A DNA stretch of 13,495 nucleotides. Source: Synechococcus sp. Lineage in GTDB: Bacteria; Cyanobacteriota; Cyanobacteriia; Thermostichales; PCC-7336. Location of the stretch: NCBI GenBank assembly GCA_051439605.1, contig JBFRWN010000045.1:1-13495 (forward strand). Direction: 5' to 3'. Positions 3 to 4,986 of this stretch are shown piece by piece. Below the pieces are notes generated by a model. The model did not search any database. It was not told where the DNA came from and was given only the letters and a program-made list of their open reading frames with translations. Position 1 is the stretch's first letter. Each line of letters opens with the position of its first letter. Made by a program: the position numbers and the translations under genes.

Positions 3-3000
3 CGCAAGCTGACGGAACGGATTCGCCAGGGTCTGCAGCAAGAGGGTCTGTTAGGTCGGGATGTGGTTGCTTGGCAGCTGCGGGCCAAGGATTTGACCGC
101 CATCCAGACCGGATATTCCCACTACGCGAACGTGGGAGATGTCGTAGTGCCGGCGTGGGACCGCAAGAAGCTGGATTTAGAGCGGGGGATACAGTACACC
201 GTCGCTGACAAGCAAGGGGATGTCCTGTCGCTGCTGGGGCCAGACGGTCGCGTGCGTCAAGTGGAAGCATCGTCATTCCGCAAGACCCTCTACGAGCGCA
301 TCGAGATGCCGCTGGCGGTGGGGGACGAGCTGCGCTGGACGAAGAACGAACGGGGAACGGGTCGGCGGAACGGACAGCTGCTGTCGGTGGAGGCGATTGA
401 AGGAACCGAGGCGCTGGTGCAGTGGGAGGACGGACGGCTGGAGTATTTGGATCTGACCCAACCGCTGCATGCCGACCACAATTTGGTGGCCACCGCCTAC
501 CGCAGTCAGGGGGAGACAGCGGACAGAGTATTGCTGGTGGATGACGGCAGTTTGGATAAAGAGAGCTTCTACGTCGGCATTTCTCGCAGTCGCTACGACC
601 TGCAGGTGCATACGGCAGATCGGGAGCGATTGTTCCGGCAGGTGGTCCGCAGCCGGGCGAACGAGAATCCCGTCGACTTGCTGAAGGAACGGTGGGCGGT
701 CGAAACATACGAAGGTATTTCAAGCGGTGAGGAGAAACCCCATGAGTACGGAATCGATCGGCGAGCAGGTTACGGCAGCGGTGCAGAAAGCGGTCTTGCC
801 GCTGAACGACAAGATCGACCGGCTGATGCGGCGGCAGGTGGAGTTGGAGGAGAGACTGAGCGCGTTTATCGCGGAACTGATCGCCCGACTGGAGGACGAG
901 CAGAAGGACAGTCAGTTTCAGGAGCTGCTGGCGGAGTTCGTAGGCACGATGAAGCTGATGAACCAGCGGATGGAAGAAGGGCAGGAAGTGGAGAAACAGC
1001 TGATTCGGGCGATGGACGACTTCGCCCAGATGGTGGATGCCAGCTTGGATCTGCCGGAGAGCTAGCGAGGGCGATCGCCCGCAGGCGGCAGCAGCGGGCG
1101 GTGGCGTCTGCCGAGGCTCTGGAATTGTTGGGAGAGCTGAAGCAGCAGGTGGGGGGCGAGCGTTCCGAGCTGAATGCTGCGTTGAGCGGCACGCTGGAGA
1201 CCTTAAAGCAAGTTACGGAACGGAACGACAGCGGCAAAACTGCCCGTCAGCTGGTTCGCAATATCCGGGCTTGGAGGGAACGAAATACGCTGCAGTCGAT
1301 TGCTTCGATGGCAGCGATGGAGGAGTTGCAGGAGCGACTGCAGGACCAACACTCTTCTCAAGCGGAACTGTGGGATTTGACCGCTCAGCTGCAGTCCGGT
1401 CTGGACCGGTTTGGCGATCGCAAGCTGGCTCGACGACTGGCGAATGGCATTCAAACCCACTTGCAGACAGCAGCGGTTGGCAAACCCGAACTGCTGGAGG
1501 CTCTGCAGCAGGTTTCTCGTCAGTTGGAGAGGACGCAGAATGCTTCGAAATTCGAACTGATGCAGCGGCTAGCCGACACAATCGAACGGTCGATGCAGGA
1601 TATTGTCGACCGCCGCAGTGCCGCACGACTGGGCGAGGCGATCGCTCGCAGGCAACTGCGCGATCGGCTGCTGCATCCCCAGCTGCATCGCGACGTTGCT
1701 GAGGGGATGGCAGCGGTTGAAGAACGGACGGCTCGACGGGCGCAGCGGTTGGAGGTGCTGCGAGCAAATTTGGAGTCGCTGGGGCGGCGGTTGGATGCAA
1801 GCCTCGACCGGGTGGCTCGACTGAAGAAACCCCAGCGACTGGGGAATACCCCTGGAGACGGTGGCAGGGTCGCCGACCGACCGGCTCGCAAGGTGACCCC
1901 CGAACTGGCTCGGTCGCTGCATATGGAGCTCTCCCACGCGAAGGAATGGGTGGAGGGCAGCGGAGTCGATCCGGCAATTGTCTCCCTCAACGTGCGCAGC
2001 CTGTCGGAGGACGTGGCGTTTAGTTTCGTGCTCTACAGCGAGAAATTGGAGCGCACCAATACGGGACGGCTTACCGCTCGCTGGTTGAAGCAGTACGACC
2101 ATCTCTACGGGGGGGGGTGGTGGGTCAGCGGCATCGATCCCGATGATCCCTACCACCCCATGACCTGGGGACGGTTTAAACCCGATAAACCCAGGGTGGA
2201 ATTGCGCAACGGAAAAACCCGAGCGATTAAGTACGAGAATCCTCCTCAAGAGGAGACGCGGGCGGTGTTCTTGAACGTGCCTCGCGACGTCTTGAAGCAG
2301 GTGGCACGACGGTACGACCTGCCGGTACCGTTAGGCAGCGTTGCCTTCTGGCAGTGGGTGAAAGAGAACGACGTGCCCGTAGTAGTCGTGGAAGGAGCGA
2401 AGAAGGCGGGGGCGTTGCTGTCGTTGGGCTATGCGGCGGTAGCCCTGCCGGGAGCCTGGAACGGCACGAGAGCGGACGAAGCGGGAACGCCGCAGTTGAT
2501 TCCCGACCTGCAGTGGATTGCCACCGGAGGGCGACAGGTGGTGATGGCATTGGATAACGACCCCAACCCCTCCACCCGCCGGATGGTGAATCGGGCTTTT
2601 GCTCGCATGGGGGCGGCGTTTCAGGAACGGTCCTGTCGGGTGTACGTGGCCGAGAGCGATGGAGAGGAGAAGGGGATAGACGATTTGCTAGTGGCTCGGG
2701 GAGCCGAAGCGGTCGAGCGGGTGGTTGCTCGGGCCGAACGGTTTGAGGGGTGGGCGTCCAAGCGCGGGTTGAAGAATGCGGCCCTGTGGTGGGAGGTCTA
2801 CAGCCGGAGGCAGCCGGGGAATTTGTTGGAGCGGGCCCAGCAGGCGGCGTTTGCGGCCTTTAGGGACGGGCGCACGATTCCCGATGTGGTGGAGATGCTG
2901 TCTAGAGTGCCGGAATACCGGCAAGCAGCGAACTCCGAGCATTTCATGTCAGCTCGCGAGTTTGTGGTGCAGGCGCTGCGGAATGGACGCAGGTTATATC

Positions 3001-3605
3001 GGGAGTACCGACTGCGCTTTGCGTTCCCAATCGAGCCGGTGCGTCCGCAGGCGTGGGAAGTAGCCTGTCAGATTCTGGAGCGGTACGGGCTGGAACGGCA
3101 GGTGGCGGACAGGGCAAAGGATATCGTGCTGACGGCTCGCTGGGAGGACAGACCGGAGGTGGGGTTCCCGTTGCGGAACGAGGACTTCCAGGTAGTGGGG
3201 GCGACTTACATGGATGGGAACGGGTTCTGTCGCAGTGAGGGGGATAGGTCCGGCTACTACCGCGTTGCGTTGGGGCATGGAGAGGTGAAAGCGATTCTGA
3301 TTGGGGAATCGCCGCTGGAAACGCTGAAGCTGTGTCCTCGGTATCGGTGGACGAGAGAGGGGAGAGCGGTCTACATCTCCCTCAACGACAAGGGCCAGCT
3401 GCCGGTGGAGTGGGTAAGGGAGTGTTTGAGGAGGGATGTGAAGGTGTGGGGGTTTGCCAGCAGTTCCGAAGGGAAAGAGCGCATGGAGTCTCTGGCTCGG
3501 GAGCTGCCGGGCATGAAGGCGATCGACTTGAGGGCCGAGAAGCCAGAGCAGAGGACGTCCGTCAGGCAGCAGCCCCGACCGAGAAGGGGGGGGCGGGGAA
3601 GGTAG
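3..3605 (+). CDS. 5'-partial conjugative relaxase/helicase (TrwC/TraI, MOBF-like) fused to a DUF3854 Toprim/primase-like domain and a C-terminal DUF3991/Toprim-like domain
   Basis: The frame is open from base 3 (RKLTERIRQGLQQEGLLG), so the true start is upstream of the window. SF1B/RecD-like helicase motifs V and VI are present (HNLVATAYRSQGETADRV at ~477-530; FYVGISRSR at ~567-593). DUF3854-type motifs lie at ~1944-2690 (EWVEGSGVD, GGWWVSG, FKPDKPR, KYENPP, VVVEGAKKAGALLSLGYAAVALPG, ALDND, KGIDDLL). The C-terminal VGFPLRN...VVGA...ILIGESPLETL...YISL segment resembles DUF3991/Toprim_2. The relaxase domain itself is outside the window and is inferred. Confidence 0.85.
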   Translation, partial: RKLTERIRQGLQQEGLLGRDVVAWQLRAKDLTAIQTGYSHYANVGDVVVPAWDRKKLDLERGIQYTVADKQGDVLSLLGPDGRVRQVEASSFRKTLYERIEMPLAVGDELRWTKNERGTGRRNGQLLSVEAIEGTEALVQWEDGRLEYLDLTQPLHADHNLVATAYRSQGETADRVLLVDDGSLDKESFYVGISRSRYDLQVHTADRERLFRQVVRSRANENPVDLLKERWAVETYEGISSGEEKPHEYGIDRRAGYGSGAESGLAAERQDRPADAAAGGVGGETERVYRGTDRPTGGRAEGQSVSGAAGGVRRHDEADEPADGRRAGSGETADSGDGRLRPDGGCQLGSAGELARAIARRRQQRAVASAEALELLGELKQQVGGERSELNAALSGTLETLKQVTERNDSGKTARQLVRNIRAWRERNTLQSIASMAAMEELQERLQDQHSSQAELWDLTAQLQSGLDRFGDRKLARRLANGIQTHLQTAAVGKPELLEALQQVSRQLERTQNASKFELMQRLADTIERSMQDIVDRRSAARLGEAIARRQLRDRLLHPQLHRDVAEGMAAVEERTARRAQRLEVLRANLESLGRRLDASLDRVARLKKPQRLGNTPGDGGRVADRPARKVTPELARSLHMELSHAKEWVEGSGVDPAIVSLNVRSLSEDVAFSFVLYSEKLERTNTGRLTARWLKQYDHLYGGGWWVSGIDPDDPYHPMTWGRFKPDKPRVELRNGKTRAIKYENPPQEETRAVFLNVPRDVLKQVARRYDLPVPLGSVAFWQWVKENDVPVVVVEGAKKAGALLSLGYAAVALPGAWNGTRADEAGTPQLIPDLQWIATGGRQVVMALDNDPNPSTRRMVNRAFARMGAAFQERSCRVYVAESDGEEKGIDDLLVARGAEAVERVVARAERFEGWASKRGLKNAALWWEVYSRRQPGNLLERAQQAAFAAFRDGRTIPDVVEMLSRVPEYRQAANSEHFMSAREFVVQALRNGRRLYREYRLRFAFPIEPVRPQAWEVACQILERYGLERQVADRAKDIVLTARWEDRPEVGFPLRNEDFQVVGATYMDGNGFCRSEGDRSGYYRVALGHGEVKAILIGESPLETLKLCPRYRWTREGRAVYISLNDKGQLPVEWVRECLRRDVKVWGFASSSEGKERMESLARELPGMKAIDLRAEKPEQRTSVRQQPRPRRGGRGR
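742..1065 (+). CDS. Overprinted (+1 frame) 107-aa acidic helical/coiled-coil protein inside the relaxase-helicase gene, possibly a mobilization accessory protein
   Basis: GAGGAG at 729-734 lies 7 nt before ATG 742; TAG at 1063-1065. The product MSTESIGEQVTAAVQKAVLPLNDKIDRLMRRQVELEERLSAFIAELIARLEDEQ... is amphipathic and protein-like with G/C-rich third positions. The host frame over the same bases is low-complexity G/R/A/D. Confidence 0.7.
   Translation: MSTESIGEQVTAAVQKAVLPLNDKIDRLMRRQVELEERLSAFIAELIARLEDEQKDSQFQELLAEFVGTMKLMNQRMEEGQEVEKQLIRAMDDFAQMVDASLDLPES
1050..1800 (+). repeat. Four degenerate ~60-aa helical repeats in the linker of the long ORF
   Basis: ELARAIARRRQQRAV (~1059), TARQLVRNIRAWRERNTL (~1239), LARRLANGIQTHLQTAAV (~1425) and AARLGEAIARRQLRDRL (~1620) recur at about 190-nt spacing. 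Confidence 0.55.
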
Positions 3606-3639: not shown

Positions 3640-4986
3640 GAGAGCGATCTGAATTTTGTGTAAGCGGTCTAGAATCCCGATTACGAAGGAGACCGCACCA
3701 TGGCAAGGACGAAGAAAGAAAGCAACCGAGTGGATGAGCTGCTAGACGAGTTGCTGGCAGACTATCGAACCCCTGAGGAGATCCTGGGGGAATCGGGATT
3801 GCTCAAACAACTGAGCAAGCGCTTGATTGAGCGAGCTTTAGCGAGTGAGCTCACCCACCATTTGGACAGAGAATCCCAAGAGAGTAACGAGCCAACCCAG
3901 CCCGAATCAGAGCGCCGCAATAGTCGCAATGGCTTTTCGAAAAAGACGGTGCACTCCCAGCAAGGGGACATGAATCTCTCAATTCCTCGCGATCGCAACG
4001 GAGAGTTTGAGCCCGTGTTGGTGCCGAAGCACCAGAGGCGGCTAGCGGGATTGGATGAAAAAATCCTGGCGATGTACGCCCGTGGACTGGGGGTCAGAGA
4101 CATCAGCGCGCAGCTAGAAGAGCTGTATGGGGCGACGGTCTCACCAGCTTTGATTAGCGAGGTCACCGATGCGGTGAGCGAGGAGGTGAAATCCTGGCAG
4201 ATGCGTCCCCTCGATCCGCTCTATCCCATCGTCTATCTTGATGCTCTGTACGTGAATATCAAGGTCTCAGGTCGAGTGAGCAAGCGAGCAGTCTACGTCG
4301 TTTTAGGCATTAACTGTGAGGGCAACAAAGACCTGTTGGGTCTGTGGATTGGGGAAGCGGAAGCCGAGGGGGCCAAGTTCTGGTTGCGGGTGCTCACGGA
4401 CTTGAAAAACCGAGGTTTGAAAGACATTCTGATTGCTTGCTGCGATGGCTTGAAGGGATTCCCGCAGGCGATCGAAGCCGTATACCCACAAACCCAGGTC
4501 CAGCTGTGTATTGTCCATCTGATCCGTAATTGTCTACGCTACGTGCCCTGGAAAGATAGCAAAGCCGTTGCTGCTGACCTCAAGCCCATCTACCAAGCGG
4601 CCACCTTAGAAGAGGCCGAAGCAGCCCTCGACGCTTTTGCCGCCAAGTGGGACGAACAATATCCCACCATTAGCCAAATCTGGATTCGCCATTGGGAGAA
4701 CATCATCCCCATCTTTGATTACCCAAGGGCGATTCGCAAAGTCATTTACACCACCAATGCCATTGAGTCGCTCAATCGCTCGTTGCGCAAAGTGATCAAA
4801 ACCAAAGCTGTATTTCCCGATGAGAACTCTGTATTGAAACTGATGTATCTGGCAATGAACAACATCTCTAAGCGATGGACCAGACCCATCAAAGATTGGA
4901 AGGCTGCACTTTCACATTTTGCTATTCTGTTCCCAGAACGCTTCACCTTTTAAACAAGCTGCTTACACAAAAATCTAAACTCTCTC
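3640..4986 (+). mobile_element. Complete IS256-family insertion sequence (1347 bp)
   Basis: IRL GAGAGCGATCTGAATTTTGTGTAAGC (3640-3665) matches the reverse complement of IRR, GAGAGAGTTTAGATTTTTGTGTAAGC (4961-4986), at 21/26. An 8-bp target duplication GTTCAAGA sits at 3632-3639 and 4987-4994. Confidence 0.96.
3700..4953 (+). CDS. IS256 family (Mutator-type) DDE transposase
   Basis: Motifs RNSRNG, IPRDRNGEFEP, YPIVYLDA, IACCDGLKG, QLCIVHLIRN, IYTTNAIESLN; ribosome-binding site AAGGAG upstream; intact 417 aa. Confidence 0.97.
   Translation: MARTKKESNRVDELLDELLADYRTPEEILGESGLLKQLSKRLIERALASELTHHLDRESQESNEPTQPESERRNSRNGFSKKTVHSQQGDMNLSIPRDRNGEFEPVLVPKHQRRLAGLDEKILAMYARGLGVRDISAQLEELYGATVSPALISEVTDAVSEEVKSWQMRPLDPLYPIVYLDALYVNIKVSGRVSKRAVYVVLGINCEGNKDLLGLWIGEAEAEGAKFWLRVLTDLKNRGLKDILIACCDGLKGFPQAIEAVYPQTQVQLCIVHLIRNCLRYVPWKDSKAVAADLKPIYQAATLEEAEAALDAFAAKWDEQYPTISQIWIRHWENIIPIFDYPRAIRKVIYTTNAIESLNRSLRKVIKTKAVFPDENSVLKLMYLAMNNISKRWTRPIKDWKAALSHFAILFPERFTF

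Follow-up and report, generated by a model that had tools for sequence, protein, structure and literature searches.

Does a relaxase-type gene of a cyanobacterium carry a second gene hidden in another of its reading frames? The question is raised by the 13,495 bases at the start of a Synechococcus sp. contig (JBFRWN010000045.1; the genome comprises 4.9 Mb in 143 contigs), which we call the window throughout. A long open reading frame (ORF), termed here the host ORF, is open without a stop from the first bases of this contig to a TGA at 3605, and an initial annotation had proposed that its low-complexity linker is overprinted by a small gene in the +1 frame. Our comparison of sequences indicates that positions 742-1065 are very probably a real, separately translated protein-coding gene, nested in the +1 frame within the linker of a MOBF-type relaxase-helicase-DUF3854 fusion (Table 1).

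Table 1. Positions of the candidate nested gene and of the associated features in the window
Feature	Position	Strand	Remarks
Shine-Dalgarno-like GAGGAG	729..734	+	7-nt spacer, then ATG 742-744
Probable nested gene, +1 frame	742..1065	+	107 codons, stop TAG 1063-1065
Host-frame reading of the overlap	741..1067	+	residues 247-355, G/A/R/D-rich spacer, open, not conserved as protein
Host-frame helical insert, about 250 aa	1068..1820	+	homologous to the insert after the nested gene in genome G001
DUF3854 (PF12965, Toprim-related)	2346..2711	+	residues 782-903, E 2.4e-36, 125 bits against a gathering cut-off of 23
Host ORF	3..3605	+	5' end cut by contig start; helicase C-terminal end, linker, helical insert, DUF3854 region

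Coding signal of the nested stretch and nature of its host

The GAGGAG motif, the ATG at 742, the 107-amino acid ORF and its TAG at 1063-1065 are all found where the initial annotation had placed them, and the +1 translation contains the peptide AVLPLNDK that it had named. The CAT to CAC change suggested over ATG 742 is silent in the host frame, where the codon is CAT. The claim that a G/R/A/D-rich stretch of the host matches the +1 ORF also proved right. In the host frame, these four residues together account for 61% of the overlap against 35% of the rest of the ORF, while hydrophobic residues account for 11% against 29%, and the GC content at the codon positions switches phase at both ends. 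In particular, the GC values at the three host codon positions were 0.82/0.65/0.30 in 726-1064 and about 0.69/0.41-0.47/0.70-0.73 elsewhere. The former is the usual pattern displaced by one base, and thus 726-1064 follows the +1 frame; the pattern is back to normal just past 1065. We also trained a codon-usage score on 424 long ORFs from this genome; genes read in frame reach 0.232 +/- 0.085 and off-frames about -0.5. Over the overlap, the +1 frame scores 0.414 and the host frame 0.008. When the entire host ORF was scanned with this frame score, the nested stretch alone had an open alternative frame that outscored the host.

The host had been described as a relaxase-helicase-primase fusion, of which the helicase end and DUF3854 are seen in the window and the relaxase domain falls outside it. 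Up to about residue 240, the host ORF encodes the C-terminal end of an SF1B helicase of the TraA/TraI type. Residues 2-226 match the TraA_Ti, TraI and PRK13889 models in their C-terminal helicase portions, partially and below the whole-protein cut-offs, as is expected because the host ORF is a fragment. DUF3854 is described as the Toprim-related N-terminal domain of CyRepA1 and CyRepA2, plasmid replication proteins of cyanobacteria (PMC10079941). The helicase region is 45-49% identical to paralogs in the same genome, one of which, a protein of 1447 amino acids on contig C13, combines a TrwC relaxase with an AAA_30 helicase and DUF3854; further TrwC fragments are present on other contigs. Among database proteins, 53 match host residues 1-245 at 33-49% identity and none is closer. 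Most of them carry TrwC and AAA_30, many also carry DUF3854 or Toprim_2/DUF3991, and their source names are MobF family relaxase or TrwC/TraI family protein. From the C13 paralog and the relatives in other genomes that carry TrwC, helicase and DUF3854, we infer that the host ORF belongs to a MOBF-type relaxase. A protein search with host residues 150-480 returned nothing, probably because low-complexity words swamped it. At least five more relaxase/helicase genes, as copies or fragments, are found elsewhere in the source genome (on contigs C13, C112, C34, C9 and C104), and this multiplicity is probably why the assembly broke inside the gene of the window.

Related loci and the frame under selection

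Six-frame searches for the small protein gave matches in 3 of 61 genomes of the nearest relatives, in 6 of 401 genomes at the class level (using alignment A2), in 5 of 401 at the phylum level, and in 3 of 48 genomes in the family of genome G370. Seven loci in six genomes were kept, namely the window and, in five other cyanobacterial genomes, two copies in G001 (G001a and G001b) and one each in G370, G721, G208, and G391. At all seven, the small ORF is enclosed by a far longer ORF of the same strand and is in its +1 frame, in agreement with the arrangement proposed for the window. The hosts of four loci (G001a, G001b, G370, and G208) carry TrwC, whereas that of G391 has a relaxase domain of the MobA/VirD2 type (PF03432). 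The G721 contig, 1950 nt long, has its host frame open from end to end. The matches in G208 and G391 both land inside relaxase genes, out of genomes of 4.6-6.4 Mb. In the window the nested gene lies between the helicase end (~residue 240) and DUF3854 (which starts at residue 782), in G370 between helicase and primase, and in G001 between TrwC (which ends at 288) and AAA_30 (which starts at 799).

Loci L003, L004, L012, and L019-L022 were dropped as probable coiled-coil noise, being in-frame parts of long ORFs devoid of relaxase domains. The dropped set includes four weak phylum-level matches (E 6e-5 to 6e-4) and those in G047 and G375; L004, the one weak locus from a pattern scan of metagenomes, lies in frame within a 220-amino acid ORF of no family. 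Pattern scans of genome contigs for the small protein gave no match, nor did tblastn searches of a plasmid collection with the small proteins of the window, G391, and G208.

Conservation of the ribosome-binding site and ATG, which the initial annotation named as a check, holds for the most part: GGAG stands exactly 7 nt before the start in all five close loci (the window, G001a, G001b, G370, and G721), and the start codon is ATG in four of them. It is TTG in G370, and the distant loci G208 and G391 have no clear Shine-Dalgarno sequence. Over the 60 nt before the ATG, the two G001 paralogs (L014 6777-6836 and L015 1364-1423) differ at 27 positions, spread over all three phases, and GGAG with its 7-nt spacing is kept within this variable stretch. 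The N-termini of the small proteins vary between loci as free ends do.

Metagenome contigs aligned to positions 1-2400 contain no insertions or deletions. Among the variant positions listed (40 of 373, from which we drew no rate estimate), bases 734, 735, and 738 differ in two of four runs, leaving GAGGA. Among the differences listed, contigs over the nested gene (690-986) have 7 in 297 nt and 2 in 135 nt, and flanking contigs of the same runs have 18-25 in 228-336 nt, which hints at extra constraint on the nested gene at short distance.

Which of the two frames is under selection was examined in the G001 pair, whose host proteins are 88.5% identical. For this one pair of paralogs, the frame-specific comparison suggested in the initial annotation favors the small frame, with a dN/dS of 0.16 and a dS of 0.65 (Nei-Gojobori, 104 shared codons), whereas the host frame over the overlap has an apparent dN/dS of 3.2 and the flanking host sequence a dN/dS of 0.07 with a dS of 0.53-0.63. 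Along the alignment of 1700 codons, differences fall mainly at host codon position 3, except in residues 301-400, where they fall at host position 1, which is position 3 of the small frame. In that stretch 19-23 of 50 host amino acids differ, against 0-9 of 50 in most other windows of the alignment; two other host stretches are also variable, near residue 1251 (15 of 48) and residue 1651 (22 of 50). Followed in 30-nt steps, the codon phase of the substitutions flips at the nested ATG and again at its stop. A fully dual-coding overlap, in which both proteins would be constrained, was considered and rejected: the small-frame dS of 0.65 equals that of the flanks, and the host frame changes freely.

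Comparison between lineages gave a similar picture. Small-frame identity was 21-33% with positive BLOSUM scores (P <= 0.004 against the host-induced expectation, 1000 resamplings), whereas host-frame identity was 11-16% with negative BLOSUM scores, no more than expected. The pattern that would speak for the opposite case, stops or frameshifts in the +1 frame of homologs that conserve the host frame, was not seen at the seven loci; the +1 frame is under purifying selection and the host frame stays open.

That openness is itself selected. We resampled the synonymous codons of each small protein from the codon usage of its host and counted stops in the host frame. None is seen, against 3.9-15 expected, with P <= 0.006 at each of six loci; for the window, the chance of an open host frame over the overlap is 0.006. 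A stricter permutation of the codons actually used gave P values of 0.10, 0.10, 0.35, 0.15, 0.008, and 0.002, which combine to 1.2e-4 over five lineages by Fisher's method. The +2 frame over the same overlaps contains 8-24 stops. Because the host frame is kept open while the small frame is conserved, both frames matter, one as a protein and the other as an uninterrupted spacer.

These observations bear on the idea that there is no second gene at all, and that the pattern arose from two frameshifts that compensate each other, from an error of assembly, or from a frame that is open by chance in GC-rich DNA. The DNA is about 60% GC, so that long alternative frames are common, and 1037-1702 is indeed open in the +2 frame, with a junk-like translation. 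Against this, the same layout recurs in six genomes and in metagenome contigs without insertions or deletions, the +1 frame evolves under purifying selection, and its protein keeps a constant length in relatives as little as 35% identical. Furthermore, the frame-score scan found no alternative-frame coding signal in the paralogs of the same genome on C13, C112, and C34. We therefore regard an explanation of this kind as extremely improbable.

The small protein and its possible role

The predicted product in the window is an acidic protein of 107 amino acids with a pI of 4.4 and a net charge of -11. Of the 13 family members, 12 have a pI of 4.3-4.9 and a net charge of -7 to -14; G208, whose long N-terminus is uncertain, departs from this. 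AlphaFold2, run on a 12-row alignment, gave two long helices (residues 3-52 and 57-102) with a mean pLDDT of 71, and the product is thus predicted to be a hairpin of two long helices. A comparison of the small protein with the helical units of the host, as a possible frameshifted copy, gave a weak BLASTP match (E 0.006 over 86 amino acids).

A word-indexed protein search retrieved three proteins 86-94% identical to the window protein and exactly 107 amino acids long (P0004-6). Three others, 35-50% identical and 106-121 amino acids long (P0007-9), came from an exhaustive search of 1.84 billion representative proteins of any length, in which P0006-P0009 (86, 50, 39, and 35% identity) were the sole matches at E <= 0.001 and no long protein carries the small segment in frame. 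All of these database relatives come from metagenome contigs. The initial annotation held that gene callers would miss the gene, and this is supported in part. Four genome loci (the window, G001a, G370, and G721) were looked up in a collection of 15 billion proteins, and none of their small proteins is there in exact form; in metagenomes, gene callers did report seven versions, of which four are on contigs of 536-631 nt. The missing proteins fit a tendency of gene callers to overlook the ORF within whole genes; a different called start could also explain them.

The stand-alone relatives also bear on a second alternative, in which the +1 segment is part of a long protein reached by programmed frameshifting near 735-741, yielding either a truncated product that joins helicase and small protein or, if a second shift followed, one uninterrupted helical protein. 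A Shine-Dalgarno-like element near a slippery proline codon recalls known +1 shift sites, and the window indeed has GAGGAG AAA CCC C before the ATG and G370 has AGGAG CAA CCC C; moreover, the host frame resumes helical sequence right at the nested stop. Nevertheless, programmed frameshifting is highly unlikely, because three of the five close loci (G001a, G001b, and G721) lack CCC-C yet keep GGAG, the 7-nt spacing and the start, and because the selection that keeps the host frame open means that the overlap is translated in frame 0. The aligned start codon in all five, N-termini that vary like free ends, and the lack of any long protein with the segment in frame among the 1.84 billion representatives argue in the same direction.

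A separately translated nested gene is instead supported by the layout at all seven loci, purifying selection, the open host frame, the start signals, and relatives that are without exception stand-alone, and the proposal of an overprinted gene is well borne out. Such a gene would ride on the relaxase mRNA, and ribosomes would initiate internally at its own GAGGAG-N7-ATG to make the 107-amino acid acidic protein, presumably folded as the two-helix hairpin. Ribosomes translating the host would traverse the same DNA in frame 0 and make a G/A/R/D-rich flexible spacer, for which the sole requirement would be the lack of a stop.

Several points weigh against this interpretation or against assigning a function to the product. 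The dN/dS test concerns a single paralog pair in one genome. Between G370 and G721, the host frame shares 38 of 110 residues and resembles the 64-amino acid helical repeat that follows it, so that the host frame is not everywhere a spacer and nothing more; the +2 frame of this pair also shares 38 of 110, and hence part of the host similarity is unsaturated DNA identity. The loci in G208 and G391 are distant relatives, with E 3.5e-6 and 1e-4 prior to their inclusion in the profile, and with ATGs but no clear Shine-Dalgarno sequence their start codons are uncertain. The relaxase domain of the host is not in the window, as the contig begins inside the helicase. As for function, homology support is lacking: the small protein has no Pfam or NCBIfam family above threshold, Foldseek against the PDB gave nothing at E <= 0.001, and the family profile matched mostly designed helical bundles among PDB sequences.

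What the protein might do can be approached by analogy. Tentatively, it is quite possible that the small protein binds other proteins as an accessory subunit of the relaxase complex and is produced along with that complex, in the way that RSF1010 makes MobB along with MobA/RepB. We consider it rather unlikely, though by no means far-fetched, that the nested gene is real and its product works outside the relaxosome, for example as an acidic DNA mimic that counters restriction, in plasmid maintenance or exclusion, or in regulating synthesis of the host protein. The family is small and all-helical and, in the 12 of 13 members noted above, so acidic that the protein would not bind DNA by charge. 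The neighbors of G001a are of plasmid type (ParM-like ALP_N and DUF932), with no transfer apparatus within 13 kb. Language-model look-alikes, which we list here as leads only, were a 'putative MobD' (0.86) and an MbeD_MobD cluster (0.81), both under the 0.9 mark. Nothing in the family searches matched any such function, however, and the strict association with relaxase genes, at seven of seven loci and across two relaxase classes, points to a relaxase-linked role.

Helical insert, genomic setting and known mobilization systems

In addition to the nested gene, the window ORF differs from the C13 paralog by the sequence that follows. About 350 extra residues between helicase and DUF3854 comprise the overlap and a helical domain of about 250 amino acids, and C13 has neither. 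By BLASTP, window residues 295-586 align with G001b residues 355-640 (E 5e-17). The insert is represented by alignments A4 and A5 and was detected in 2 of 401 genomes of the class. Since the insert lies between relaxase and helicase in G001 and between helicase and DUF3854 in the window, the unit has changed place within the gene family. No repeats flank it apart from units containing the HIP1 octamer.

HIP1, GCGATCGC, marks cyanobacteria and occurs six times in the window against 0.28 expected. This excess is in keeping with a cyanobacterial origin, and so are the named relatives of the host protein, which belong to cyanobacteria. Three copies (1071-1078, 1414-1421, and 1638-1645) lie within a recurring 17-nt unit of the host helical insert, the first of them beginning 6 nt past the stop of the nested gene. 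In the G370 and G721 lineage, the host frame right after the nested stop consists of 64-amino acid helical tandem repeats, with three copies in G721 (L028, host frame about 468-1043) and one in G370 (L016, host residues 1261-1324). The host frame beneath the nested gene bears a weak resemblance to this repeat (E about 0.01).

One scenario for the distribution of the nested gene is a portable gene-within-gene cassette, spread between relaxase genes by in-frame insertion or recombination that spared the host frame. We regard this scenario as unlikely on present evidence, yet it would accommodate several features. The gene has its own ribosome-binding site, it sits in different linkers and may occur in two unrelated relaxase classes (TrwC-type, and MobA/VirD2-type in G391), and in the window and G001 it is accompanied by the same helical domain. 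Once inserted, it would depend on the relaxase's own expression. In this scenario the gene may have arisen by overprinting on a unit such as the 64-amino acid repeat, which the host frame beneath it still resembles in the G370/G721 lineage.

A second +1-frame ORF was flagged by the frame-score scan in the same relaxase ORF of G370 (L016, 7063-7971, + strand). It encodes about 275-300 amino acids, with a coiled coil and a C-terminal transmembrane-like helix and no Pfam match. By analogy with mbeB and mbeD of ColE1, it may be a second nested gene in a stacked arrangement.

Downstream of the host ORF, a Mutator-family transposase gene occupies 3700-4953, starting 95 nt past the host stop, and is followed by Uma2, MarC, DUF1400/alpha-beta hydrolase, and MscS-like genes. 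A domain scan of the window found no transfer apparatus genes.

The closest precedent for the layout is mobB of plasmid RSF1010, described as lying wholly inside the relaxase-primase fusion gene mobA/repB, on the same strand and in another frame, with MobB working together with the relaxase in mobilization (PMC2200642). Similarly, the window has its nested gene in the linker of a fusion of the relaxase type whose C-terminal part is Toprim-like. The host, in contrast, is of the MOBF (TrwC) type with an SF1B helicase and DUF3854, and not a MOBQ MobA with RepB', and the nested gene occupies different linkers depending on the host, namely relaxase/helicase in G001 and helicase/DUF3854 in the window. 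The window protein has no recognized family, and it is compared with MobB here at the level of gene layout. The second precedent is found in ColE1-type plasmids, where mbeB and mbeD encode small helical proteins out of frame inside the relaxase gene mbeA. The window resembles them in having a small helical protein out of frame within a relaxase gene, and differs in relaxase class and host group as well as in family: the window protein matches neither MbeD_MobD (PF04899) nor MbeB_N (PF04837), even when E values up to 10 are allowed, and a scan of 12 family members did not place either model among its 25 most-matched families. Finally, the host resembles cyanobacterial MobF relaxases fused to DUF3854/Toprim, to which its helicase end is 33-49% identical; unlike those fusions and C13, the copies in the window and G001 carry the ~350-residue insert made up of the nested gene and the helical domain.

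Full-text searches of the open-access literature turned up no report of a gene nested in a cyanobacterial MOBF relaxase. As judged from these comparisons, the design of RSF1010 and ColE1 appears to be repeated in MOBF-type cyanobacterial fusions with what would be a new protein family, set apart from MbeB and MbeD by the Pfam models. Bacteria have few well-supported overlapping genes on the same strand, and such genes usually escape gene callers; here the comparative proof consists of a substitution phase that switches exactly at the start and stop and a host frame that is open against expectation. The locus is a clean model of a disordered linker that hosts a second gene. Furthermore, it points to an unstudied component of plasmid transfer or replication in cyanobacteria, which is relevant to vector design.

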